Positions 3,732 through 49,400 of a DNA stretch of 62,308 nt are shown in pieces. The position numbers were made by a program, and so were the translations under genes. The notes under the pieces were generated by a model. That model had not been told where the DNA came from. It was given only the letters and a program-made list of their open reading frames with translations, and searched no databases. The stretch is from positions 1 through 62,308 of the IMG/VR virus record IMGVR_UViG_3300049440_000308; one strand, given 5' to 3'. This stretch comes from a virus. Position 1 is the stretch's first letter. The number at the start of each line of letters is the position of its first letter.

Positions 3732-4255
3732 GGCTTTTCCTTCCGTAGCTCGCGCAGGTACCCGAACACCCGCTCCTGCCCGTCGTCGTCCATCCCGGTT
3801 CCGCGCAGCGCCTCGGAGACAAGCTGGTCGGACTCGGTTGCCTCGGCCGCCTCAAGCCACTGCAGGGCCATCGGCCGGGCCTCTGCGGCGAGAACGCACC
3901 CGCGTCTGGAGCCCCTGCCGATCAGGACCACGGCGTCGCCTGTCTTAGTCGATCCCGCCGGGATCAGGTCCACGGTGCCCGGGGTGCCGAAGGACCGCTC
4001 CCGGCCCCGGCCCGTGAGGATGTCCGTGACCAGTGCCGAGGCTATCCTGCCGTCCAGCTTCAGTTTCGCCACCAGGGTCATCATCATCTCCGCGTAGGCG
4101 GCGCAGGACACCATGTCCAGGGCTGCCCTGCGGACCTCCTCCACCGGGGCGTACCACTGGTGCGGTCCCCAGGTGAGCAGGCAGGCAGGCTCGTCGTCGG
4201 GGCCGCGGGTTGACTCAACCTGCAGCGCGTCGTCCTCGTCGTCGTCAGTGCTCAT
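3728..4255 (-). CDS. hypothetical protein
   Basis: Coupled by 4-bp overlaps at both ends; normal amino-acid composition. Confidence 0.7.
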   Translation of the reverse strand: MSTDDDEDDALQVESTRGPDDEPACLLTWGPHQWYAPVEEVRRAALDMVSCAAYAEMMMTLVAKLKLDGRIASALVTDILTGRGRERSFGTPGTVDLIPAGSTKTGDAVVLIGRGSRRGCVLAAEARPMALQWLEAAEATESDQLVSEALRGTGMDDDGQERVFGYLRELRKEKP

Positions 4256-5640
4256 CGTCCCGCCTTCTCCCGGGCCGCCAGCCAGCGGAGCGCGCCGGCC
4301 TCGTCATCGAACTCCCCGGCGTCCTGCGCGGCCAGCGCCCCCGCAAGCAGGGGCTTGAACGCCGGGCCCGGCCTCATTCCCGCGGCGATCAGGTGGTCCC
4401 CGGTGAGCAGCCCCTTCGCGGGGCGTTCCTCCACCTTCAGGTCCCGGCCCATCTCAAGCCACGCGCCCGCCGTGCTCCGGGCGTCCGGGTCGCCGCGTCC
4501 CTTGACGTCGGCCGCGCGCACGAGGGCGAGCTCGGCCAGCGTCGCGGGCGCCAGCCGGCGGGCGAGCCTGCGCACCGCGGGCTTCCGCGGGGCGCCCTGG
4601 CAGTTCATGTGCTCGGCGATCAGCGGGATGATGCGGCCGGTGATCCCCTCGGGGCAGCCGATGCCCTGCAGGAACGCCCGCGCGGGCGCGACCCCGGCCT
4701 CCGCGTGCCCGTGGGAGGTGATCCGGCCGCCCTCATTCTGCGTGTGCGTGACCTTGCCGGCGTCGTGCAGGAGCGCGGCGAAGACGACGACGAGGCGGTC
4801 CGTCCCGGTGAGCCCGGCCTCGTCGGCGAGCCTGGCAGCCTGGTCCGCGGCCAGGCCGGCGTGCGTCCAGACGTCGCCTTCAGGGTGCCACTCAGGGTCC
4901 TGGGGGATGCTCCGCATGTTCATGAGTACCGGGAAGTGGTGACCCCACCAGGTTTCTTCCAGGACCGCCAGCGCGCGGCTAACGTGCACCCCTCGCGTGC
5001 CGATCTTCTCGAACTCGCCCCAGATGCGCTCTACGGGCAGTTCCCGGTAGGCGCCCCTGATCTGGAAGCACAGGAGCACGGTCTCCGGTGCCATGGTGAA
5101 GCCGAACCGGGCCGCGAGCTGAACACCGCGCAGGACGCGGAGCGGGTCCTCGGCGAACGCCTGCGAGGTGTGCCGCAGGATGCCCGCCTTCAGGTCGGAC
5201 AGGCCGCCGTGGCAGTCGGTGACCTCACCTGTCGCCGGGTCGGCCATGATCGCGTTGATCGTGAAGTCCCGGCGTGCGCTCGCCTCCGCGTAGCCGAGGT
5301 AACCGTCCGGGATGACGGTGAAGCCCCGGTGCCCTGCGCCCGTCTTGGACTCGCGGCGCGGCAGTGACACGTCGGCCTCGGTCCCGCCGCGGCGGACCTT
5401 GAAGACGCCGAAGGACTTCCCGGCCTCAGTCACCGTTCCGACCTGGGCCAGCGCGGCAGCCAGCTTGCCGGGGTCGGTAACACCGTAGACCTCGATGTCG
5501 GTGTCCTTGGCCGGCAGGCCGAGCAGGGTGTCGCGGACGCAGCCGCCGACCAGCATCGGGCGCCCCCCGGCCGCGCCGCGGATGGCGGACAGCACCAGGA
5601 CGAGGTCCGCATCGGGGCGGGGCAACTCGATCACGGGCAT
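4252..5640 (-). CDS. cca: CCA tRNA nucleotidyltransferase / poly(A) polymerase family with HD domain
   Basis: VGGCVRD, DTDIE, RRDFTINA, EDPLRVLR, WHPEGDV and LLHDAGK motifs. Confidence 0.9.
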   Translation of the reverse strand: MPVIELPRPDADLVLVLSAIRGAAGGRPMLVGGCVRDTLLGLPAKDTDIEVYGVTDPGKLAAALAQVGTVTEAGKSFGVFKVRRGGTEADVSLPRRESKTGAGHRGFTVIPDGYLGYAEASARRDFTINAIMADPATGEVTDCHGGLSDLKAGILRHTSQAFAEDPLRVLRGVQLAARFGFTMAPETVLLCFQIRGAYRELPVERIWGEFEKIGTRGVHVSRALAVLEETWWGHHFPVLMNMRSIPQDPEWHPEGDVWTHAGLAADQAARLADEAGLTGTDRLVVVFAALLHDAGKVTHTQNEGGRITSHGHAEAGVAPARAFLQGIGCPEGITGRIIPLIAEHMNCQGAPRKPAVRRLARRLAPATLAELALVRAADVKGRGDPDARSTAGAWLEMGRDLKVEERPAKGLLTGDHLIAAGMRPGPAFKPLLAGALAAQDAGEFDDEAGALRWLAAREKAGR

Positions 5641-22622: not shown

Positions 22623-23300
22623 CCTCACGGCAGCGTCCTTTCCCGCCGCGCCTCAGGCAGCGCGTCAAGCAGCCGCGCGAGGCCCCTCGCGTCGTCAAGC
22701 GCGGCCAGTTCCTGCTTCGTCCACCGTCCTGTCGCCCGCAGGGTCACCGGCGCCCGGCACTCCCGCCGTCCCGTCAGGAGCTCCCAGGCGATGCTCACCG
22801 TCACCACCCCGAGGGCCATCCCCCCGGTTACCGTGATCGGGCACCCCACGAGGGCGAGGGCGATGATCAGCCCGGCCGAGATAATCCACAGCCCGGTGAC
22901 CTCAGCGACCGTGACGCGCGCCCCGCGGTCAAGCCAGCGCCTAAGCACGGTGACTCCCGGACGGCGGCGGCAACGTCCCCGAGCACCGCGGCGAGCAGGC
23001 CGGCGTCGGCCGCGGTGACAGCAGGCCGGCCTTCCGCCCACGGCCTCGGGGGATCAGGCCAGGCTCCCGCCTCCGCGGTACGCCACACGTGCCCGCCCTC
23101 AGGTGCCGGGTGCCTCGTCACTTTCGGGTAGCGCTCTCGCGCCAGGCGGGCCAGGGCGGTGCCTACCTGAGCGGTCGCGAGGGGCTTTCCCCAGTCCTCC
23201 TGCGCGCGGGCGCGAACCTCATCCGAGGTTGCCTCCCCGCCGAGGGACGCCAGGGCAGTCAGGCACCTGTCGCCCATGGTCAGGCCGCCGAGGGGGGCGG

Positions 23301-24762: not shown

Positions 24763-25440
24763 TCATGACGCCTCCGCGGGCAGGTACGCGAGCGCTGCGG
24801 CGTGCATCCGCTCAAGCTCGGCGACAGCCTCCGGGCCGTCCTTCTCCGCCATCTCCCGCAGCAGGGGCAGGCCGGAGCCGATCGACGCGAGCACCTCAGC
24901 CCGGGTCGCCTCCCGGCCCTCCGCGAACCACAGCGCCCGCCTGGCGGGCCCGAGGCGGAACAGGTAGCCGCGACCCTCCCGCTCCGCCTTCCACCCCCGG
25001 TACCCGGTAACCCAGACGACGGACGCCCCGGGGTTGCGGCGGATCATGATCCCGGCCGGGTTCTGCGCTCCTTCGGGCAGGTGCCGGCCGCGGCGGACCA
25101 TGTTCGGGGTGATCAGGAAGGTGCAGTTGCGGGCACTGAAGGCCGCGCAGTCCAGGTGTGACGGCGGCTCCGGCGTAACGAGATTTACAGCGCACATCGG
25201 CCCGATAAGCCACGCGCGGTCCTCGCCGCCGGAAAAGCCCCGCCCGCAGACCCAGCAGAGCGAGGCGCGCAGCGCGCGATGGAGCTTGCCGCCGTCAGCG
25301 ACCCGGAACTCCGGCTTCCCGTCGATCCACGTCACGAACCACGGGACCGGCCTGCCTATCGCGTCCACCGGAAGGTCCCTCATCCGGCGCGGCATCTCGC
25401 CGTTCCACTCCGTTGCGCCCGAGCGCCTACCGGCACTCAT
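24763..25440 (-). CDS. conserved phage hypothetical protein
   Basis: GRPVPWFV..LCWVCG..IGPMC..EPPSHLDCA..CTFL. Confidence 0.7.
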   Translation of the reverse strand: MSAGRRSGATEWNGEMPRRMRDLPVDAIGRPVPWFVTWIDGKPEFRVADGGKLHRALRASLCWVCGRGFSGGEDRAWLIGPMCAVNLVTPEPPSHLDCAAFSARNCTFLITPNMVRRGRHLPEGAQNPAGIMIRRNPGASVVWVTGYRGWKAEREGRGYLFRLGPARRALWFAEGREATRAEVLASIGSGLPLLREMAEKDGPEAVAELERMHAAALAYLPAEAS

Positions 25441-25590
25441 GCCGCAGCCTCCCCTGGCGGGAAAGCGGTCCCGGTCTTGCCCGCAAGTGCAGTGCCAGGT
25501 TCCTGTTTCAACGAGGCGAGTCCGGCAGTGCCGGGGGTTCGTGCCCCTCCGCAGGCGTTTCGACTCTCGGCCCCACTGGCCGCGAGTTTC
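25390..25590 (-). ncRNA. putative TnpB omegaRNA (scaffold overlapping the tnpB 3' end, plus guide)
   Basis: Hairpin-rich tail after the last RuvC motif ending GAGTGCC-ggta-GGCGCTC..GCAACGG; position inferred from known TnpB biology, boundaries approximate. Confidence 0.45.
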
Positions 25591-26753
25591 AGCAGGTTAC
25601 GGGCCGCGTTCACGTCCCGGTCCTCGGTGTGCCCGCAGCTTTCGCAGCGGTAAATCCGCTCGGCGAGGGGCAGCTTGGCTTTCACTGCCCCGCACGCCGA
25701 GCACGTCTTACTGGACGGGAACCACCTGTCGGCGACGACGAAGGTCCCGCCGTTCCACGTCGTCTTGTAGGCGAGCATCCGCCGGGCCTCGCCGAACCCC
25801 TGGTCGGAGATCGCGCGGGCGAGAGAGCGGTTGCGCACCATGCCGGCGACGTTCAGGTCTTCGGCAACAACTGTCTCGTACCGCCCGGCGAGATCCGTCG
25901 TCGCCTTGTGCAGCGCGTCGGCGCGGACGTTCGCGACCCTGGCGTGGACACGGGCAAGGCGGGCGGCAGACTTGCGGCGGTTCACGGAGCCCGGCCGCCT
26001 GCGGGAATGAGCGCGGTTTGCCCGTCGCAACTTCCGCAGGCTCGCGCGGAGCGGCTTCGGGCCCGTCACGGAGATTGTGCGCCCGAGATCATCTACTCCG
26101 GTCAGCAGCGTCTTGATCCCGAGGTCGACGCCGATCGCCGAGCCAGGCGGGGCATGCTGTTCCGGCACGTCCCGCTCCACCTCGACTGTGAACGAGACGA
26201 ACCATCTTTGCGCCGTCCGCGAGACCGTGGCGGACAGGATACGGGCGGTACCGTTCTCCAGTCGGCGAGCGAGTTTGCGGGTGGACTCATGGGTGCCGAT
26301 GGTGCCGATCTTCGGCAGTGTGACCGTTACGCCCGAGCAGCGCATGGCCCGGTCGCTCAGCCGGAACGAGTCCCGGCACTTCCCGCGCTTCTTGAACTTC
26401 GGGAACCCGAGGCGCTTGCCCTTCCGCTCGCCCTTCCTGGACTTGGCGTAGTCCCGTAGCGCCCGGTCCAGGTCGCGGAACGCCCCCTGGTAGGCGCACT
26501 TGCTGTTCTCGCTCCACCAGGCGAGGGCCGGGTCCCTCTTCTTCTCCGCGTTCCAGAGCTTGCTCAGGTCGAATGCGGAGTACCACTTTCCCTCGGCCTC
26601 GTAGCGTTCCCTGCACTTGGCGAGCCCCCAGTTCCAGGCGAACCGGGAGGCGCCAGCGTGGGAACGGAAGGCGCGCTCATCGGCCGGGCTATGGTCGATG
26701 GCGAACTTGTACGCCCGCTTCACCACATCTCTCCGCACGCCCGCCTCACCCAT
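25437..26753 (-). CDS. tnpB: RNA-guided endonuclease TnpB (IS607/IS200-IS605 type), no TnpA nearby
   Basis: AYKF..H.GASRFAWNWGL; RuvC motifs GVDLG, AEDL and DRDVNAARN; Zn finger SSKTCSACG...CESCG. Confidence 0.93.
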   Translation of the reverse strand: MGEAGVRRDVVKRAYKFAIDHSPADERAFRSHAGASRFAWNWGLAKCRERYEAEGKWYSAFDLSKLWNAEKKRDPALAWWSENSKCAYQGAFRDLDRALRDYAKSRKGERKGKRLGFPKFKKRGKCRDSFRLSDRAMRCSGVTVTLPKIGTIGTHESTRKLARRLENGTARILSATVSRTAQRWFVSFTVEVERDVPEQHAPPGSAIGVDLGIKTLLTGVDDLGRTISVTGPKPLRASLRKLRRANRAHSRRRPGSVNRRKSAARLARVHARVANVRADALHKATTDLAGRYETVVAEDLNVAGMVRNRSLARAISDQGFGEARRMLAYKTTWNGGTFVVADRWFPSSKTCSACGAVKAKLPLAERIYRCESCGHTEDRDVNAARNLLKLAASGAESRNACGGARTPGTAGLASLKQEPGTALAGKTGTAFPPGEAAA

Positions 26754-30245: not shown

Positions 30246-30861
30246 CGGGAGCCCCTGCCCCTGTGTCCGGTCCGGCACCCGGCAGGGCGAGGGCACCAAG
30301 GCCGATGTCCCGCAGTTCCCCGCGCTGCCAGGCGGTGATCACCTGGTCGCGGGCGTCCTTGCCCGGCCGGTAGGAGAAGGCGCCGGTCGGCTTTAGGTCC
30401 GTGACCTCGGCCACCCGCTCCTTGACGCCCGTTTCCGTGTCGGTCAGCCAGCCGCCGGACTCCTCGATCTCCTTCAGCAGTGCCGCCCGGGTCGCCGCGC
30501 GGATCCGCCGGCTCACCAGGTGCGGGAAGACGGCCCGCAGGACGTCGAGCACCTCCGCGTCGGTTAGCGCCCGCGCGTCGGCGACCTCCTCCATGCCGCC
30601 CGGCAGGTGCTCGGCCACCCACGCCTCAAGCGCGGCGTCGGTGACGTCGACCTGCCTGCCCCCGGCCCTGATCGACACCAGCCCGATCTCCGCGCCGTCC
30701 GGGAGCATCACCTTCTGCTGCGACTGGCCGTCGCCCCGGGCCGGGCCGAACGCCGCCTCGGCGTCCTTCCGTGCCGCCTTGTACGCCGCGCCCACCTCGT
30801 CGCCGATGACGTCGAGCACCGCGACGCGCAGGGCGTGCTCGCGCAGGCTTGTCTCGCTCAC
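30238..30861 (-). CDS. hypothetical protein in the recombination region
   Basis: Coupled to the intein-containing gene; AGGAG RBS. Confidence 0.7.
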   Translation of the reverse strand: MSETSLREHALRVAVLDVIGDEVGAAYKAARKDAEAAFGPARGDGQSQQKVMLPDGAEIGLVSIRAGGRQVDVTDAALEAWVAEHLPGGMEEVADARALTDAEVLDVLRAVFPHLVSRRIRAATRAALLKEIEESGGWLTDTETGVKERVAEVTDLKPTGAFSYRPGKDARDQVITAWQRGELRDIGLGALALPGAGPDTGAGAPDE

Positions 30862-33002
30862 GCCGCCGCGCTCCTAACCTGGGTCATCCGCTCAGCCAGG
30901 CCGCGCCCGAGCTCGTTGGCGGTCTCCGGCGCGATGACGCCCGCCTGCACGGCCTTGCCGAGCTCGACGCGCATCCTGCCGATCCGCTCCTCGCTGGCGC
31001 CCGCGGTCCGCGCGACGAACGACCGGACGAACTCGGTCTCAGGGTCGTCTTCCGGGGACGGGTCCGCCTCGGGGTCATCCGCGGCTTGCGGCGCCTCGGC
31101 CGGGCCCTGCGCCGCGGCGGCAGCGGTCGGTTGCCCCTGCGGCGGGCGCGGGGGCTGCTCTCGCTTGGCGGTCAGGTACCCGGCCATCTGCAGGGCGGTG
31201 CACCACTGCTCGGCGCTCCACTGCCCCGGCTCAGGCCACCGCTTGCCCTTGTACCAGCGGTCAAGGCCCTCCCGGACGTCACCGGGAAGCGCCATGACGA
31301 CAGCGGTCGCCGCCTCCGCCAGGGCGCCGCTGTCGGGGGCCGCGTTACCGCGCATGTCCTCAAGGTCCTGCGTGAACAGCCCGGCTGCCGCCGTCGCGTC
31401 GATCGACGCGCCAACGAGGCTGCGCTTCTCGCAGTTGTGCGTGACCGTGCCGTCGTGCAGCAGGTACAGGTGATCGGGCGTGCCCACTTCCAGGTCGTAG
31501 GTCATCGTCTCGCCGTCAGGCTCAACCGACATGACCTGCGCCGAGTCGGCATTGTTGCCGTGGCTGCCCGCGGGCGGCTTCACGTCCCCGACGAAGGTCC
31601 CGAACGTCTTGCCGCCGGCCTTGGAGGATCCCGTCCGCACGTTGACCCGGTAGCCGAGGGCGGCGCCCAGGACGCGGAGGTCACGCAGCCACGCGTCGTT
31701 GTGGCCGGTGAAGCCGACGCGCCACCATCCGCGCCGGCCGGGACGCTCCATCCACGAGCCGTCCCCGTCCAGCCAGCCGCGCAGCACGCCGTCGAGGAAG
31801 TCCGACCCGGCGCGCCACGCCGTTGCGCGCAGGTGCTTGTCGTATGAGTTCTTGCCGGCGATGAACTGCCTGAGCAGGCCCAGGATTGCCGGGCCACTGA
31901 TGGTGACCTGCCATGCCTTCATGTCAGGCCGCTGCTCGTACCGCGCCGGGCAGCCGAGGCGACGGCCGATCCAGACCGCGCGCTGAGCCAGTTGCTCCTC
32001 GTCCTGGCCGAGCGTGATCCCGACACCCCACCTGGTTATGTGCCCGTCAGCGATGACCAGCCCGACGAGCCACCCGAAGTCAGGATCCGGCTCCTTCATC
32101 CCGGCCAGCGGGATGGTCCGGCGCGTCAGGACATCCCCGATGGCCAGGTCCCCGGCGGGCACCAGGCCGCGGGAGGTGAGGAACCTGTGGGCCGCCGTGA
32201 CCCGGTGCTCAGTCCCGTCCCGCAGCGTGATCCGCAATACCGGCTGGACCCCGTTGCGGAACATGTCCGTTATGGGCACCCATTCGCCGTCAGGGCCGGG
32301 CACGCAGACCTGGGGGGCGGTCGGCTTGCTTATCCAGCTGTAGAGCCGGGTGGCCTCGGTCAGGTACTCGCCGTCCGGCGACTTGACTAGCAGCGGGGTA
32401 CTAGCCGCGAGGCACATCTTTATGACGGAGTTCCAGGGGGCCCGGTACTCGGTGGCGTGCTCCCACTTGGCGGGGCTCGGCTGCCGCTTGTCTTTCGCGG
32501 CGTACTGCCGTTCCTTCGCCTCGGCCTTCGCGCGGGCCGCCTCGGCGGAGATGAAGAACTTGTCCTCGTCGTAGCCGGCGTACGCCTCGCAGGTCGCCAC
32601 GGTGACCCGGCGCCCGTCGGCGAGTTCCTTGTAAACGGTGCACCGGTAGGTGACGCCGACCCGCCGCACCTTGTCCGCGATCCCGCTCGGGCAGTCCGGG
32701 TCGTCGCGCTCGATCTTCACCTCGTTGTTCTCGAACCCGAACCCGAACCACTGGATGAGCTTCTCGGCTCCGGGCTTGAACAGGCTCGGTGTCTTGCCCA
32801 TGCCGGGGATGAGCCCGTAGTCGACATCTGGCTTGAGCACGGCCCGCATGCAGTTGCGGAGCTGCTCGTCCAGCGCGGCGGCCTCGGCCGGCTCCATGAC
32901 GAACCGTGCCCGGTACTCCTCGGGCGCGTGCGCCGTGTAGGCCGCCAGGTCCGTGCCCGGCGCGTGCACTGCCGTCGCCTCAACTTCTGTTACCGCGTTC
33001 AT
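30858..33002 (-). CDS. conserved phage protein (possible single-strand annealing/recombination protein) containing an intein
   Basis: Exteins DYGLIPG..PSLFKPGAEKL...NSVIKM and CEKRSLVGA..LFTQDLEDM. Confidence 0.75.
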   Translation of the reverse strand: MNAVTEVEATAVHAPGTDLAAYTAHAPEEYRARFVMEPAEAAALDEQLRNCMRAVLKPDVDYGLIPGMGKTPSLFKPGAEKLIQWFGFGFENNEVKIERDDPDCPSGIADKVRRVGVTYRCTVYKELADGRRVTVATCEAYAGYDEDKFFISAEAARAKAEAKERQYAAKDKRQPSPAKWEHATEYRAPWNSVIKMCLAASTPLLVKSPDGEYLTEATRLYSWISKPTAPQVCVPGPDGEWVPITDMFRNGVQPVLRITLRDGTEHRVTAAHRFLTSRGLVPAGDLAIGDVLTRRTIPLAGMKEPDPDFGWLVGLVIADGHITRWGVGITLGQDEEQLAQRAVWIGRRLGCPARYEQRPDMKAWQVTISGPAILGLLRQFIAGKNSYDKHLRATAWRAGSDFLDGVLRGWLDGDGSWMERPGRRGWWRVGFTGHNDAWLRDLRVLGAALGYRVNVRTGSSKAGGKTFGTFVGDVKPPAGSHGNNADSAQVMSVEPDGETMTYDLEVGTPDHLYLLHDGTVTHNCEKRSLVGASIDATAAAGLFTQDLEDMRGNAAPDSGALAEAATAVVMALPGDVREGLDRWYKGKRWPEPGQWSAEQWCTALQMAGYLTAKREQPPRPPQGQPTAAAAAQGPAEAPQAADDPEADPSPEDDPETEFVRSFVARTAGASEERIGRMRVELGKAVQAGVIAPETANELGRGLAERMTQVRSAAA
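31434..32414 (-). mobile_element. intein with LAGLIDADG homing endonuclease (327 aa)
   Basis: Starts CLAAST; block B VTAAHRF; LAGLIDADG helices LVGLVIADG and LRGWLDGDG; ends TYDLEV..VTHN followed by Cys. Confidence 0.93.
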
Positions 33003-34523: not shown

Positions 34524-34985
34524 TCAGGCGGCTTCCGCCTCCCGTGCCGCGAGGTGGGTGAGCGCCTCGGCCACGGTCATGCCGGGGTTCGCCTCCATGA
34601 CGGGGCGGACGTCGTTGTAGAACTTGGTGAGCGCCTGCTGCTGGCGGCGGGCCGGCCGGGTGATGTTCCGGATCCTGTTCACCTGGATCCGGTACGCCTT
34701 GTCGAGCTGGCCGATGGTCATGTCGGCGACCCGGGCGGGGGTGTCTACCGCGACGTCCAGGTAGGCGGGGATCAGGGGGAACAGGGCGGCGTCGAGCAGG
34801 GTGCGGGGCTCGTGCCTGCGTACCCACCGGCCGACGTCGCGGTCGGCGATGGCGGCGAGGAACTCGGGGTGGTCCGCGATGAGGGCGGCGATCGCGCTCG
34901 CGGCGGCGTCCCGGGTCACGGCGCCGGCGGCTGCCCGCTCGCCGTGGGCGGCGACGGCCTCCCGGTACCAGGCGGGTGCCCTCAT
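34524..34985 (-). CDS. hypothetical protein
   Basis: Coupled to the cro-like gene. Confidence 0.65.
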   Translation of the reverse strand: MRAPAWYREAVAAHGERAAAGAVTRDAAASAIAALIADHPEFLAAIADRDVGRWVRRHEPRTLLDAALFPLIPAYLDVAVDTPARVADMTIGQLDKAYRIQVNRIRNITRPARRQQQALTKFYNDVRPVMEANPGMTVAEALTHLAAREAEAA

Positions 34986-35218
34986 GCCGCCGCGCCTTGC
35001 TGCGACTTGACGAGCAGGTCGTCGGCGTCCATGCCGAGGGCGTCAGCGATCCGGTAGACGACCTCGATGGAGGCGCTGTAGGGGCTGCCGTCGCTGAGGC
35101 CTGACTCGATGTTGGCGAGGGTCTTGTAGCCGACGCCGGCGCGCTTGGCGAACTCGCCCAGCTTGATGCCGAGGCGCTGGCGCCTGCCGCGGATGAGCCT
35201 GCCGTTAACTTGGGGCAT
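34982..35218 (-). CDS. Cro-like XRE HTH regulator (probably leaderless)
   Basis: RRQRLGIKLGEFAKRAGVGYKTLANIESG; the ATG lies 7 nt after the -10 box. Confidence 0.85.
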   Translation of the reverse strand: MPQVNGRLIRGRRQRLGIKLGEFAKRAGVGYKTLANIESGLSDGSPYSASIEVVYRIADALGMDADDLLVKSQQGAAA

Positions 35219-35225
35219 GCCGGAA

Positions 35226-35255
35226 AGCATAGGAAGCTACCGGAAGGTGTGTCAA
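35226..35255 (-). promoter_or_regulatory. principal-sigma promoter driving the early operon
   Basis: TTGACA-N18-TATGCT, overlapped by GGAA repeats at about 10-bp spacing. Confidence 0.75.
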
Positions 35256-35410: not shown

Positions 35411-35986
35411 ATGACGAATCCACGCGAAGACTGGCCGCGCCTCGCCGTGTACGTCGCATCGGCACGCCAGGACGCAGGCTTCCGCACGATCAGGGCCTTC
35501 GCTTCCTCCATCGGGATCACCGAGCGCACCCTCGGCGCCCTGGAACGCGGCGAGCGCGTCAGCCGGGACACCCTGATCGCCGTGGCGAAGGCGGTCGGCT
35601 GGACGCCTGACTCGCCGGGGAAGATCCTCGCAGGGGCGGAGCCGGTCATGCTCGCAGGGCAGTGCGCGGCACCTCCCGCGCACGAGGACGACGCGCTGCA
35701 GCGGATCATGGACGACGAGCGCCTCCCGATCGAGGTCCGCCGCGGCATGGTGGCCCTGGCGGAGGCGATGCGCCGCCGCAGTGACAGTGAGCGGGACGGG
35801 CGGAGCGCCTTAGTCCTCTTCGGCGAGCAGCTCGGCGAGGCGTCTCCGCGCCTCGCGGGGCATGAACCTGCGGATCGAGTCGGCGACCTTCTCGGGCGTG
35901 GACAGGATGATGCGCGGCTTGCGCCAGCCCTTCTCCCGGGCGGCGGCATTCGGGGTGACCTCCCCGCGCGCGACCTTCTCGGCTAG
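35411..35986 (+). CDS. immunity repressor-like XRE protein, C-terminus extended by cassette insertion
   Basis: WPRLAVYVASARQDAG..GITERTLGALERG; divergent from cro; frame runs antisense into the next gene. Confidence 0.75.
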   Translation: MTNPREDWPRLAVYVASARQDAGFRTIRAFASSIGITERTLGALERGERVSRDTLIAVAKAVGWTPDSPGKILAGAEPVMLAGQCAAPPAHEDDALQRIMDDERLPIEVRRGMVALAEAMRRRSDSERDGRSALVLFGEQLGEASPRLAGHEPADRVGDLLGRGQDDARLAPALLPGGGIRGDLPARDLLG

Positions 35987-36457
35987 TTCCGGGTCGTCGC
36001 GCTTCAGTCGGGCAATCACGCGGTTGGCCGTGTCTTCGAAACCCTTCGTGTCACGTAGTGTTTTGCCACGCCCTGGTCCCGCATGATCAGTCGGCAGGAG
36101 GGGCGCGATCTCCCCCATTAGCAGCCGCTCGATTTCCCGCCGCATCAAGCTCATGCGCTCCGCGACCTCGGGCACGGATTCGTGCGGATGCCGGAGCGCC
36201 AGCAGCTTCGGGAGTTGGTCAGCGTCATAGCCGAGCCCGAACGGCGCGCGCGTCCCGACGAACGCCCGGAAGCGCCCCTTGAATGAGCGGCCCTTGGCGT
36301 CGGCGAGACGTTCCCAGGTCTGGTCTTCCACGAGCGCGGCGAGAAGTTCCAGCGCCCCGGCAGGGCTTCCCCCGTCACGGTGGAGCGCCTCCCCTGCCCG
36401 CTGGACCCGCAGCTGCTCCTCGGTGTACTCGCCGATCTCGACGCGCCGCGGCGTCAT
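35810..36457 (-). CDS. hypothetical partner protein of the HNH-helicase
   Basis: ATGA-coupled to the helicase; IARLKRDDPELAEKVARGEVTPNAAAREKG helical motif. Confidence 0.75.
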   Translation of the reverse strand: MTPRRVEIGEYTEEQLRVQRAGEALHRDGGSPAGALELLAALVEDQTWERLADAKGRSFKGRFRAFVGTRAPFGLGYDADQLPKLLALRHPHESVPEVAERMSLMRREIERLLMGEIAPLLPTDHAGPGRGKTLRDTKGFEDTANRVIARLKRDDPELAEKVARGEVTPNAAAREKGWRKPRIILSTPEKVADSIRRFMPREARRRLAELLAEED

Positions 36458-38475
36458 TCGAGGCCGTTCAGCAGTCTCCGTGCGGCATCAAGCCGCGCCT
36501 GCGCTTGCTCGATCGTCAGGCAGTCAGCTGCCCGCCGCCCGGCCATCCGGTTGACCTCTCCCGTTACGCGCTCAATGTGATCGCTGTAACCCGGCTGCCC
36601 CCCGTAGATGCGCTGTACCCTGAGGATGCCCTTGACGGTCTCGACGACGAGGCGGCCGATGCCGTCGATCTGCTGCCGCTCTGTCTGCGGGATCTCTCCC
36701 GGCGGCGCGGCGGCGGGCGGATCGGAGACCGGGAGCATCATGCCGAGCTTCTCGGCGAACTGAGCGAGCACGGTCACGTCGTCGGCCGCCCCGACGTCGT
36801 GCTTGATCGCCTCAATCAGCATTCGCTGATCATGGTCAAGGCTCGCGTCATTGCTGACCGCCCGCGCGGTGGTCGTTTCCGCGGACTCCACGTACCCAAG
36901 CTGCTCCGGAGGCTCGCCGCCGCACCCGTTCCTCTCCTCGCGCTCGCGACGCTCACGTAGGCCCTGCTCGGACTCGCCGCGCATGAACTCGATGAACCGG
37001 GTCATCTGCGGGTCGTCGGGGGCGATGACGCGGCAAGACTGCCCCCGGGCTGGCATCACGTCCCACACCCGCAGGCCGCGCCCGACAAGCTGCTCCAGGT
37101 GCCCCCAGTCGCGGTAATGGGTGAGGATACCGACGACCGTGATCGCCTTGCAGTCGTAGCCGATGAACGCCTTGCGGACGGTCACCAGCACGTCGCCGCC
37201 GCGTCCCTTGGCCTTCTCCCCCTTGAACATCTTCAGCGCGCGCTCGGACTGCAGGCCGTCCTCACTGATGGCCTTCATGACCTGGAGGCCCTCGTACTTG
37301 TCGCTGAGGTACTTGTAGACGCGCTTGGCGTCGTTCTGCTCCATGCAGGAGATCAGGCCCCGGTACTCAGGGTTCAGGCGCTGCTTCTCCCTGACGTCGG
37401 CGACGACGCGGTCGGCGATCGCCTGCCAGACCTCCGGCTTGCGGAGTACCTCGATGAGGTCGTCGCCGCGCGCCGAAAGGTCGTACTCGGTGACGGTGTT
37501 GTCGACGCTCTTCCAGCGGACCCGCGCGTTGTGCAGCGTCGCCTCGAAGCGGCGCAGGTAGCCCTCGCGCACGCCGTCCCTGTAGTCGGCCTTGGCGTGG
37601 TGGAGCAGCTTCCGCTTCCCATCCTCGTCGTGATCGTCGTACTCGGCGAGAATGAGCGGCTGACCGTCTGACCTGTAGGGCGTGCCGGTCAGGAGCAGCG
37701 TGTGCGCGGCAAGGGCATGCAATTCGGTAATGAGTGTCCCGGCGCGGGTGCCGCCACCCCGGTCATTGTCCGCGCCGCAGAACTGCGCCTCGTCGGCGAT
37801 GAGCAGGAAACGTCCCCTGTGCTCAGCCGCCCAGTCCTCGTAAACCTGGCTCGTGACCAGCGACGAGTAGGTTGAGACGAACCCGACTCCCGTCTCGCCC
37901 GGCTGCGTGAGCGGCGGCCTGTTGGGGACATGGCGGATCTTTCCGAACCGGGACCGGGCGTCGAACAGCTCGAAGTTTCCCGTAACGCTGCCGTCGGACC
38001 ATCGGGTGCGCCAGTCATTTTCGCACTGCTCTGCGAGCGTGATGCGCGGCACGAACACGGCGATGAGGTCGGCTAGCCCCTCACGGTAGGCGTAGGTGGC
38101 TACGGCCTGGTAGGCGAGGGTCTTTCCCGAACCGGGAGAGGCGAGGACGATGGTGGTCCGCCTGCCGGACGACATGCCGTCGAGGACGCTGTTGACGACT
38201 TCGCGCTGGAACGGGCGCGGCCTGAAGGTGTCGCGGTATTGCAACTGGCTGCCTTTCTTGAGGTTGCACGGGCGGCACAACGCGCGCCCGTTAGCAAGTG
38301 ATGTCCTGCCACCCTTGGACCACGGCGTGTAGTGGTCCGCATGCCACCCCTTAGTTAGCGGAGCGTCGCAACCCTGAAGGCCGCACGCTTCGCAGCCTTC
38401 GCACTGGCATCGGCCGTTCGCAGCTGCGTATATCGCTGCTTTCTCGCGGTCGGTGAACCTGCGCCGCTCGGCCAC
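36454..38475 (-). CDS. HNH endonuclease fused to an SF2 (ResIII/DEAD-like) helicase
   Basis: N-terminal HADH..PWSKGG.T..NGRALC..CN; PRPFQ, SPGSGKT, IADEAQ, LTGTPYRSD and QLVGRGLR. Confidence 0.88.
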   Translation of the reverse strand: MAERRRFTDREKAAIYAAANGRCQCEGCEACGLQGCDAPLTKGWHADHYTPWSKGGRTSLANGRALCRPCNLKKGSQLQYRDTFRPRPFQREVVNSVLDGMSSGRRTTIVLASPGSGKTLAYQAVATYAYREGLADLIAVFVPRITLAEQCENDWRTRWSDGSVTGNFELFDARSRFGKIRHVPNRPPLTQPGETGVGFVSTYSSLVTSQVYEDWAAEHRGRFLLIADEAQFCGADNDRGGGTRAGTLITELHALAAHTLLLTGTPYRSDGQPLILAEYDDHDEDGKRKLLHHAKADYRDGVREGYLRRFEATLHNARVRWKSVDNTVTEYDLSARGDDLIEVLRKPEVWQAIADRVVADVREKQRLNPEYRGLISCMEQNDAKRVYKYLSDKYEGLQVMKAISEDGLQSERALKMFKGEKAKGRGGDVLVTVRKAFIGYDCKAITVVGILTHYRDWGHLEQLVGRGLRVWDVMPARGQSCRVIAPDDPQMTRFIEFMRGESEQGLRERREREERNGCGGEPPEQLGYVESAETTTARAVSNDASLDHDQRMLIEAIKHDVGAADDVTVLAQFAEKLGMMLPVSDPPAAAPPGEIPQTERQQIDGIGRLVVETVKGILRVQRIYGGQPGYSDHIERVTGEVNRMAGRRAADCLTIEQAQARLDAARRLLNGLE

Positions 38476-38966
38476 CCGACCGTCCTCTCATTGGTCGAAA
38501 CTGCCAACGACGAACATACACATCGCTGGCACCTGCGAGAGGTTCCCGCAGGCGGGCTAGCCGTCACGGGCGGAGCGCCTAACCGCCCCTGGCGAGGCAC
38601 CAGCCGCAGCCCCCGGGACGGTCCCGGCCGCGGGGAGGCTCCCGTGCCCCCGCCGGCCTGGCGCGCAACAGGCAGGTTTCCGAACCCGTAGCCGGACATT
38701 ACGGCGAGGGCGTCACCGTAGGCGCTCACCTGCTCCTCAAGCTCAGCCAGGCGCTCCCTGGCGTCGGCCCGCTCCCGTTCGGCCGCCCGCTCCCGCGCCC
38801 GCGACTGCCGGGCCCGCAGCGCCACCGCGCACAGCGCCTCGACTGCCGCGCAGGGCAGCCACAGGTGCGCCGTCCAGTGCGCGCGGAACTCCGCCCCGGC
38901 CCCCGCCATCGCGGGCCACAAGCCCGTCACCACGGTCCACAGGACACGCCTTAGGACAGTTTCCAT
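38355..38966 (-). CDS. putative membrane protein (3' end uncertain)
   Basis: Hydrophobic N-terminus and coiled coil; frame reads through the cassette boundary. Confidence 0.45.
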   Translation of the reverse strand: METVLRRVLWTVVTGLWPAMAGAGAEFRAHWTAHLWLPCAAVEALCAVALRARQSRARERAAERERADARERLAELEEQVSAYGDALAVMSGYGFGNLPVARQAGGGTGASPRPGPSRGLRLVPRQGRLGAPPVTASPPAGTSRRCQRCVCSSLAVSTNERTVGWPSGAGSPTARKQRYTQLRTADASAKAAKRAAFRVATLR

Positions 38967-46643: not shown

Positions 46644-47441
46644 TCACGCGACCTCGTCCTCTGCGTCGAACAGGCTGGCCTGCCAGCCTCGGGCATCAGA
46701 CAAGGCAAGCGAGTGCAGCAGTCGCTGACGCCACTGGGCGGCGAACGTGAAGCAGTTAGCGCAGTTCTTGTGCCCCGTGCAGCCAGGAAGCGGGGGTGAC
46801 CGCCGCCCGTCGTAGGACCAGGCCATCGAGTCGGCCGAGGCGAACCGGCGCTGCCCGTAGCGCAGGAGCCCGGTGGTCTTGAACCCGAATCCGTGCAGGC
46901 GGATGGGCGCGAGGGACTGGCTGATCACGTCCGCTTCCGCAGTGCCCTGCCTGCGGCAGACGCTCCCGAGCCCTACCCGCGGCTCGGCCGCCAGGTCGAT
47001 GCCCGCCGCGCTGTACATGTCCGCATGGCGCAGGTAGTCACCTGGCAGCCAGCCCTGCAAAACGGGGATAAACGGCAGGCCCGCGTCGAGGGACCGCAGT
47101 TCCAGGTAGTTGCTCACGGTCAGGGCTTGGTGCTCGGCGACCGTCTTGCCGGTGCGGCCGGTGATCCACGGCTCGCACATCCAGTCCTGCGGGGCAGCGA
47201 AGTCCATGCTGCCGATTTCGTCGTGGTAGCGGCGGACGGCAGCGCAATAACTGCGCGGGGACTCGTTCCACTCGCCGTGCAGTTTCAGTTGCATGAACCC
47301 GCCGGAGTCCAGTGACCAGCGGCCCGCGGCCCGCGGCAGCGTCTTGCGGTGCCGTAGCCGGGAGTGGCTGACGAACAGCGGGAAACGAGCACTGGCCAGC
47401 CAGCCCTCGTGATGGGCACCGAGGTAGAACGTGAAGCTCAC
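46644..47441 (-). CDS. TGT-fold / DpdA-like deazaguanine transglycosylase
   Basis: LDSGGF, PQDWMCEP, IPVLQG, GLGSVCRR, LHGFG and SADSMAWS match the TGT/DpdA barrel pattern. Confidence 0.8.
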   Translation of the reverse strand: MSFTFYLGAHHEGWLASARFPLFVSHSRLRHRKTLPRAAGRWSLDSGGFMQLKLHGEWNESPRSYCAAVRRYHDEIGSMDFAAPQDWMCEPWITGRTGKTVAEHQALTVSNYLELRSLDAGLPFIPVLQGWLPGDYLRHADMYSAAGIDLAAEPRVGLGSVCRRQGTAEADVISQSLAPIRLHGFGFKTTGLLRYGQRRFASADSMAWSYDGRRSPPLPGCTGHKNCANCFTFAAQWRQRLLHSLALSDARGWQASLFDAEDEVA

Positions 47442-48145: not shown

Positions 48146-48708
48146 GCCGTCACCGCCCCCGGGGCGATAGCGGCAGGGCCGCGGTTCCGCAGCAGCCACG
48201 TCACCGGGATAGCGGCGAGGATCACCCAGAGCTTGCCCAGGATCAGGCCCTCAAGCGACGGCAGCGAGTACAGGCCGGCTAGGTGTAGGAACAGGGCCGA
48301 GTCCACGACGACAGCCGCGCACCCTGACGCGAACACCGCCGGGACGAACCAGCGGCGCTGCAGCGGCGTGTAGACCATGAAGTCCACGGTCTCCGAGCAC
48401 AGGTAGGTCAGCCCGGACGCCACCGCGATGCGCGGGTCGCTGACAAGCCACGACACGCCAGCTCCGGCGACGATGGCGATGATGCCGGGCCAGCGCCCGC
48501 CGAGCCGCTGCGTGACATCCCGCGCGGGGAAGCTCACCGCAGCGGCCCACACGCCCGACGGGGCGTACAGGCCGAACCCGACCGGGGTCAGGTGCGTCCC
48601 GTAAGGCGTCGGGATGCCGACGTGGGTGATCAGCCAGTTAGACGCGACGATCGCGGCGACGTAGACGGCGAACGCCGCGGCCGCCCAGGAGTACCTGGTT
48701 GTAGACAT
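48142..48708 (-). CDS. VUT family (YhhQ-like) queuosine-precursor transporter
   Basis: Multi-TM; IVASNW, F.ARDVTQR, RIAVAS..SETVDF.VYTPL and VVDSALFL. Confidence 0.85.
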   Translation of the reverse strand: MSTTRYSWAAAAFAVYVAAIVASNWLITHVGIPTPYGTHLTPVGFGLYAPSGVWAAAVSFPARDVTQRLGGRWPGIIAIVAGAGVSWLVSDPRIAVASGLTYLCSETVDFMVYTPLQRRWFVPAVFASGCAAVVVDSALFLHLAGLYSLPSLEGLILGKLWVILAAIPVTWLLRNRGPAAIAPGAVTA

Positions 48709-48725
48709 GTGATTATCCTTCCTGG

Positions 48726-49400
48726 TCATGCTGCGGGAGTGTCTGTCCGCCTCGCGCGCGCACCGGTACCCGCGGTGGTGCTCTCGGCGTCGTGAAATGG
48801 GAAGTGGGGAACGTCATCAGCCGCTGTTCCCGGTCCTTGGCGGGCTCGCGGTTTTTGCGAGCCCGCCAAGGGTCGCCGTAGGCGCGGGTCTTGACCTTGA
48901 CTTTGACCTTGGGGTTGATCTTTGTCTTTAAGGGACGGCAGGGCCCCGTAGGGGCCCGTCCCGTCCCGTCCCGGGTCAACAGTTGACGAGACTGATGACA
49001 AGGCCGAGTCAACTGTTGACGGGTGCGGCGCCTGTCGGCACTTGCCGGGAAGGCACAGCGCATGGTCGCCTGCACGGTGAGCGCGAGACCGCTTCTGTGC
49101 CTCGGCGAGGTAGGCGCGGCGGTGCTCAACCTGAGCGCGGTCCTGCTGCCACTCAGGGAAGCGCAGGCTGATGTCCCAGGCGTCACCGTCATCGGCCCAC
49201 CATCCCTTGGCGACCAGGCCCTCAACGGCAGTCGCGGCGTCAGGGGACTCCGTGAACCGGCGCACGTCAGCCTTGGGGATGCGGAGGTCAAGCAGTCGCC
49301 AGCTCGACCAGCACAGTGCCTCGGCGTGCGTGCGGAACTCCGCATCTGTCAACTCGCGTGCCGCGGCCGGGAACTCGTCGCCGAGCTTGGTCCACGTCAC
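48726..49400 (-). CDS. second replication initiator-like protein
   Basis: WTKLGDEF..LTDAEFRTH.EAL.WS..L...GWW and HRAGDHALC; linker encoded by repeats. Confidence 0.55.
   Translation of the reverse strand: MTWTKLGDEFPAAARELTDAEFRTHAEALCWSSWRLLDLRIPKADVRRFTESPDAATAVEGLVAKGWWADDGDAWDISLRFPEWQQDRAQVEHRRAYLAEAQKRSRAHRAGDHALCLPGKCRQAPHPSTVDSALSSVSSTVDPGRDGTGPYGALPSLKDKDQPQGQSQGQDPRLRRPLAGSQKPRARQGPGTAADDVPHFPFHDAESTTAGTGARARRTDTPAA

Follow-up and report, generated by a model that had tools for sequence, protein, structure and literature searches.

A cargo cassette at the end of a phage repressor gene, and TTA as a candidate stop-like codon in an actinophage lineage

Does a cargo cassette at the end of a phage repressor gene rewrite the C-terminus of the repressor? 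The question is raised by the virus record IMGVR_UViG_3300049440_000308 (G000), which is 131 kb long and of which the window, the whole stretch of DNA analysed here, is the first 62 kb (62,308 nucleotides; about 71% GC). Two cargo genes are enclosed there by two copies of a direct repeat, the left copy being formed by the last codons of an XRE repressor-like gene. According to the initial annotation, the cassette removes the repressor's stop codon and adds a tail to the protein, which would make the site either a target for cargo or an excisable switch. Comparisons with related loci indicate that the cassette lies between the repressor gene and the gene that faces it, and that the repressor probably ends at 133 amino acids (aa) either way, with TTA acting as a stop-like codon in this phage group. 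The features concerned are:

35411..35812, plus strand: XRE repressor-like gene, 133 codons to ...RDGRSA and then TTA, the likely end (HTH_3 5e-5; homologues stop at the equivalent codon)
35796..35810, plus strand: left copy of the 15-bp direct repeat, equal to the last five repressor codons
35810..35812: left shared triplet, TTA for the repressor and TAA stop for the 215-aa cargo gene
35813..35986, plus strand: 57-codon read-through tail under the standard code, likely untranslated (coding score -0.13 against 0.22 upstream; not conserved)
35810..36457, minus strand: cargo gene 2, an all-helical protein of 215 aa that belongs to no known family (no match in Pfam, PHROG or PADLOC)
36454..38475, minus strand: cargo gene 1, a protein of 673 aa with an HNH nuclease joined to an HsdR/RadD-like SF2 helicase
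38566..38580, plus strand: right copy of the 15-bp direct repeat
38580..38582: right shared triplet, TAA on the plus strand and TTA for the convergent gene, at the codon that equals the TAA stop in the relative L001
38580..38966, minus strand: convergent gene of 128 codons, membrane/coiled-coil (homologue in L001; 203 aa under the standard code)

The cassette and the end of the repressor

The exact 15-mer was recovered at 35796-35810 and 38566-38580 with a spacing of 2,770 bp, and in the whole 131-kb record these are the only two sites with fewer than two mismatches. The repeat is better stated as 17 nt with one mismatch, of which the left copy ends in TTA and the right copy in TAA. We rejected the repeat as sole proof of an insertion because pairs of this kind often arise by chance: in the window, 11 exact pairs of at least 15 nt lie within 5 kb of each other, where the null models gave means of 2.2 and 4.65 (20 Markov simulations each). 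It is instead the presence of the empty site in L001 and in run X1 that makes the insertion real. L001, whose repressor is 80% identical, agrees with the window as far as 35812, beyond which comes a homologue of the gene to the right of the cassette. Aligned to a virtual empty site, it shows identities of 322/385 on the left, 13/15 in the repeat, and 66/87 and 105/129 on the right, and the right flank reaches a local score of 229, the cargo one of 32. Two contigs of X1 likewise depart from the window at 35812, and their next 30 letters match 38583-38612 at 22/30 positions, ungapped, when aligned by eye.

The comparison of relatives suggested by the initial annotation thus yielded empty alleles, and with the empty site in exact register in these two relatives, the alignments establish the 2,770-bp insertion and its boundaries as real. 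The loci L007, L017 and L030 are duplicates of L001, and a DNA pattern scan of viral contigs returned the L001 record only; no RNA record was listed as carrying the sequence. The GC content of the cassette is 67%, against 72-73% in the flanks. The two repeat copies in the window are identical and L001 differs from them at 2/15 positions; identical copies fit a recent duplication upon insertion. The depth in X1 is lower over the cassette than over the flanks, but since contigs of several strains are summed there, no inference was drawn from it.

Joining the repeat copies in silico gave a 133-aa repressor ending RDGRSA*, as had been predicted, and the intact locus does encode 191 aa under the standard code, with an added tail that is the antisense shadow of the 215-aa cargo gene. 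The part of the earlier claim that did not stand is that the cassette caused the loss of the stop codon. The repressor of L001 reads ...AGC GCC TTA and would reach 297 aa under the standard code, and the X1 contigs fit the window through the repressor TTA. As TTA follows ...GRSA in both empty alleles, the read-through is independent of the cassette. The tails that follow S-A-L among relatives are 4, 8, 57, 57, 82 and 159 residues long, and differ in sequence as well, most being antisense shadows of the gene that faces the repressor; four database proteins continue past S-A-L, with tails of 4, 8, 57 and 82 residues.

Homologues that are more distant stop at the very same codon, with TAA in L008 and in L009/L010/L012 (one lineage) and TAG in L018, and the protein P0004 ends NGRSA. 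In L008 and L009/L010/L012, the facing gene has a TTA in frame opposite the repressor TAA and would extend 58-155 codons antisense into the repressor, which is also the arrangement at the right copy in the window; in L018, where the repressor ends in TAG, the two genes overlap in the usual way by CTAG. Throughout the family, the repressor and the facing gene have one triplet in common, which serves as TAA for one and TTA for the other, in either orientation. If TTA ends genes, the repressor and the convergent gene have the family lengths of 133 and 128 aa, as against 191 and 203 aa under the standard code. A second repressor lineage points the same way, in that L123 reads ...SAAG and then TTA where L124 and L125 end ...AAG*.

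The junction tally was made without the distant repressor hits L011, L013, L014, L016, L019 and P0005 and without L015 (a 24-residue match), and four further repressor loci from terminase-linked records (4/31) were so distant that only their C-termini were compared. Two other explanations for the junction were tried and rejected: a hairpin-loop inversion flipping TAA and TTA, as no conserved flanking palindrome was found by eye in the junction contexts, and a programmed hop or frameshift from the repressor TTA to a nearby stop, as this is not conserved between the window and L001. A weak search found no longer read-through forms of the convergent protein, and a simple scan no terminator at the junction. 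The repressors P0006 and P0007 carry another N-terminal helix-turn-helix (HTH) domain and the same C-terminal module as the window protein, which amounts to domain swapping within the repressor. Just 3' of the repressor in G408 (L125:29-1165) lies a frame resembling TnpB/IS605, another insertion on that side, its family assigned by eye.

TTA at gene ends and in coding gaps

In 11 related phage records, coding continues after an in-frame TTA in only 2/24 cases, both in the more distant record G409, as compared to 3,293/4,660 cases for 12 other rare codons (Fisher p=3e-10). Within the three closest records, the counts were 0/11 for TTA and 888/1,267 for the other rare codons, and the ten closer records gave 0/22 for mid-gene TTA. 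The mirror test, which looks for a start codon behind a codon that lies ahead of coding sequence, placed TTA (8/9) alongside the true stops TAG (28/31) and TAA (12/15), while most other rare codons scored about half.

UUA occurs where homologues stop in the repressor, in the convergent gene, in L123 and at G000 96042. At this last site, the TTA of G000 corresponds to TGA or TAG in G406, G408 and G410; if it were no end, the frame would reach 104 codons into the following gene. Apparent gene ends at TTA were also observed at G000 114144, 69814 and 74358 and at window 22942-22944 on the minus strand; among these further ends, homologues support 96042 only, with weaker support for 114144.

TTA also leads short gaps inside two structural genes. 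The Walker A motif of the terminase is broken by a TTA-led 7-nt insert in 5/70 readable loci (81 examined), set between matching GGA codons in 4/5: in G000 at 68000-68006 (L031:2001-2007), in L043, L048 and L058, and in L051 with an imperfect landing codon. The terminase of G002 reads straight through the insert site. Likewise, in seven records short gaps occur at two shared places of the portal gene, the leading codon being TTA, TAG or TGA. Both gaps are TTA-led in G000 (70429-70480), and relatives have TTA, TAG or TGA, or lack one of the gaps. As the same gaps may be led by any of the three codons, TTA is interchangeable with true stops there. As a separate observation, an intein starts right after the Walker A residues GK of the G002 terminase (48310-49373), adjoining the site of the TTA gap in G000, and similar intein starts are present in L044, L046, L047 and L117. 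A coding-like frame without a start codon follows CCC TTA AAG at window 48929 on the minus strand and overlaps the TAA of the upstream frame, a possible frameshift site.

Comparable gaps have been described in the Streptomyces phage phiHau3 and two prophages, the terminases of which contain UUA-led coding gaps for which bypassing under bldA control was proposed (PMC10732093). As in phiHau3, a 7-nt gap led by UUA and bordered by matching GGA codons interrupts the G000 terminase, and UUA does not behave as a plain leucine codon. In contrast to phiHau3, TTA here also marks gene ends, is paired back-to-back with TAA, and is exchanged for TAG or TGA at the portal gaps. The features of phiHau3-type bypass are present in the terminase but not in the repressor, for which no conserved landing site was found.

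Termination at UUA has been reported for organelles, namely the mitochondria of labyrinthuleans and Marsupiomonadales and the plastids of peDinoflagellates, where altered release factors have been identified and termination at UUA has been connected with a change at Ser204 of RF2 (PMC12574857). The phages resemble these organelles in that UUA stands at the stop positions of homologues and is nearly absent inside genes, but they are bacterial viruses, and no release factor gene (RF-1) or Pth2 gene was found in 5/5 records. No phage-encoded tRNA was found either, so the mechanism acting on UUA must be in the host. Although the tRNA gene search came up empty, the window does contain genes resembling a tRNA nucleotidyltransferase (4255-5640) and a queuine tRNA-ribosyltransferase (46647-47441).

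Readings of the shared triplet

We propose that the cassette entered once, by short-homology or illegitimate recombination that would have duplicated the last five repressor codons, and that the TAA of the cargo would have replaced the stop of the convergent gene. UUA would then lead to ribosome release or rescue, either in a host lacking a usable tRNA-Leu(UAA) or through a host release factor that reads UUA. With TTA as an end, the three genes would have their family lengths (133, 215 and 128 aa), and excision would alter no protein. We give even weight to a broader statement, that a temperate actinophage lineage, and by implication its hosts, use UUA as a fourth stop-like codon, that the TAA/TTA triplet flips freely, and that the same signal launches the hops in terminase and portal.

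Several observations speak against this proposal. The coding score is our own heuristic, a codon score trained on 29 long G000 frames. Mid-gene TTA occurs in 2/2 cases in G409 and in 4/8 cases in the unrelated actinophages G003 and G004, from which it follows that the TTA effect is limited to certain lineages. In L009/L010/L012, the convergent gene has a TTA some 42 codons from its beginning, flanked on either side by coding-like sequence, and this TTA is probably read as leucine, although start codons come after it. Normal stops follow within 15 codons in 6/11 terminal TTA cases, which fits plain tolerance near gene ends. In columns aligned with a homologue's stop (351 sites), TTA accounts for 6/117 non-stop codons, and two of these six are portal gap sites and not gene ends. 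The leucine after S-A in P0001, P0006, P0007 and P0008 is seen at the protein level only. Finally, the cassette junctions are seen in G000 alone, and none of the cassette pieces listed in X1 bridges a junction.

One rival is the standard code, under which TTA is leucine, the stop has simply been lost from one of the two facing genes in every lineage, and the phages tolerate the junk tails. In GC-rich genes the antisense frames stay open by default, a single step separates TTA from TAA, and the tails of P0001 and P0007 are short. This account would nevertheless require that in four or more lineages, and at either end of the cassette, the genes repeatedly came to abut in frame at exactly one triplet, and that a repressor bears tails of up to 159 aa. 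It leaves the terminase inserts, the rare-codon test and the portal gaps unexplained, and we regard it as improbable. A conditional reading of UUA, as in a bldA-like system, is still unlikely, though more probable. Ribosomes would stall at UUA during vegetative growth, the repressor being released at 133 aa or tagged by tmRNA, and later UUA would be read as leucine and the tail gained; terminase and portal would be completed by hopping, and the orientation of the triplet would pick which of the facing genes senses host development. The similarity of the terminase insert to the 7-nt UUA-led gaps of Streptomyces prophages (PMC10732093) is in line with this idea, as are the probable mid-gene TTA in the L009 lineage and the presence of WhiB-like genes and a BldC-like frame in the phage, which point to a developing actinomycete host. 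A gap led by TAG or TGA at the same place in the portal cannot, however, sense a leucine tRNA, the tails of 4-159 residues are unconserved, the triplet flips between relatives as expected if its two forms are equivalent, and no mid-gene TTA was found among the 22 cases in the ten closer records.

The least probable explanation, which we consider very unlikely, is the excision switch, whereby recombination between the repeats would turn a long repressor into a short one with another degradation signal. The window copies are identical while L001 differs at 2/15 positions, and excision would leave a TAA allele like those of L008 and L009; the C-termini of the family, -SA or -GA, may also resemble degradation tags. 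Identical copies are, however, also expected from a recent insertion, and the module when located elsewhere has no flanking repeat longer than 10 nt. Excisable interrupting elements of the skin, SCCmec or heterocyst type have their own or a dedicated site-specific recombinase and give an excised junction or circle. Here, the gene content confirms that the cassette encodes no recombinase, and searches of G000 for a serine recombinase or resolvase were empty. The phage integrase lies about 90 kb from the repressor (35411) with no copy of the repeat nearby, and the repeat was rejected as its att core since there are only two copies, both flanking the cargo. No TAA-type excision joint of this allele was listed in X1, which comprises contigs only, from one run. 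Since L001 and X1 keep TTA and have diverged flanks, they represent other strains rather than excision products.

A known system of this kind is the integration-dependent immunity of mycobacteriophage BPs, in which attP lies in the repressor gene's 3' end, the integrase is a direct neighbour, and an ssrA-like tag is lost upon chromosomal integration (PMC4557955). The present locus is similar to BPs in having a recombination-type sequence in the 3' end of a repressor gene beside a cro-like gene (PMC4557955), and differs in that the integrase is far away, the repeat flanks internal cargo and the protein is likely unchanged. We found neither an attP core in the repressor nor an adjacent integrase, and empty and filled alleles both have TTA at codon 134. 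Of the two options raised by the initial annotation, cargo at the repressor end is thus upheld, in the form of an accessory two-gene module for which empty alleles exist; the excisable switch that rewrites the repressor is not supported, even though the observation that led to it is confirmed.

Cargo, genomic setting and meaning

Cargo gene 1 has intact motifs (Walker A, GSGKT 115; DEAQ 228) and homologues in 154 representatives at E<=1e-30. It shares the SF2 motor fold and motifs, joined to a nuclease, with the HsdR/RadD-like nuclease-helicases (R subunits of type I restriction systems, LlaBIII and RadD; a weak match to PbeA), but differs from them by an N-terminal HNH rather than PD-(D/E)XK domain, by the lack of a methyltransferase or specificity subunit, and by a conserved helical partner. 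For this partner, cargo gene 2, we identified 189 homologues, the named ones being from Nonomuraea and Micromonospora; its structural model has a pLDDT of 84, and fold searches gave no match in the PDB at E<=0.001 and no function. Among the PADLOC 2023 systems, only weak matches to the helicase domain were found (best PbeA, 2e-7) and none to the partner, and the two genes of the cassette include no methyltransferase of a type I or ISP restriction-modification system. The genes are preceded by a short leader:

38476..38565, minus strand: 90-bp cassette leader with a GAGAGGA ribosome-binding-like site and a short hairpin, read from the sequence, with a putative function

The helicase and its partner are kept together in 8/9 viral loci (including two distant or partial matches) and in 3/3 plasmid loci; none of the other viral loci lies beside this repressor or has a flanking repeat longer than 10 nt. 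The helicase was identified on 16 plasmid records, 15 from Streptomyces and one from Kitasatospora; in the 3/16 records that were opened, it is followed by a longer partner with a common N-terminal domain, and in one of these loci SLATT and nucleotidyltransferase genes adjoin the pair. The helicase was absent at E<=1e-30 from those searched among 401 genomes from the phylum of G005. As seen with G005, the partner occurs in L003/L004 without a helicase nearby; in L168, L172, L175 and L176 the pair is located directly upstream of genes resembling phage replication initiators (by eye); and in L005:8680-8900 and L170 a start-less fragment similar to the C-terminal domain of the partner follows the partner gene. 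The cargo is most likely an accessory module, mobile among actinophages and Streptomyces plasmids, with a role in defence or competition. From its domains and neighbourhood, the pair is most likely a two-component DNA-translocating nuclease directed against competing mobile elements. A literature search, with most subscription papers outside its scope, found no paper on the cargo pair or on such a junction.

The genes of G000 include those for terminase, portal, capsid and tail, for WhiB-like regulators and for a tyrosine-type integrase, and the nearest terminases from isolated phages, at 53-56%, are those of Streptomyces and Actinoplanes phages. On account of this gene content, including the integrase, and of the nearest terminases, we infer that G000 is a temperate phage of a high-GC actinomycete. 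The integrase (127070-128752; 560 aa) has a LacI-like HTH inserted in its catalytic region and was missed by a genome search with PF00589 but detected with PHROGs. The locus belongs to a cI/cro-like region, with a cro-like gene at 34982-35230 on the minus strand and the divergent XRE gene from 35411 on the plus strand, a layout that suggests the repressor role of the latter, and in the empty alleles the convergent gene lies directly opposite the repressor. Upstream of the repressor are:

34982..35221, minus strand: cro-like XRE gene, divergent from the repressor (Pfam HTH_3 6e-9; 78% identical in L001); the listed reading frame is 34982-35230, and the likely start is MPQV behind the promoter
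35226..35255, minus strand: promoter-like site TTGACA-18-TATGCT leading into the cro-like gene (1 found against 0.2 expected; a consensus match only)

Elsewhere in the window, a 714-aa gene with a LAGLIDADG intein (30858-33002, minus strand), where L001 has an unrelated AAA-type gene, possibly encodes a recombination protein, and a transposase-family gene (phrog_506) is located at 25440-26726.

The use of a sense codon as the end of a protein has, among the printed reports we found, been described only for organelles, UUA in bacteria being known for delayed reading as leucine and for triggering bypass; our literature search turned up no bacterium or phage described as ending genes with UUA. 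The locus provides a compact test, since both orientations of the triplet occur 2.77 kb apart in one genome and the length of the repressor is fixed by its relatives. Standard gene callers probably yield false C-terminal extensions in these phages, which is the origin of the first reading of this locus. Apart from this, the two cargo genes are a testable candidate for a nuclease-helicase system not described before, in phages and linear plasmids of actinomycetes. If the decoding of UUA varies with host development, the repressor end, the terminase and the portal would together form a translation-level sensor for the lysis-lysogeny decision, and loss of the cassette would, if this is true, free the repressor from such control.

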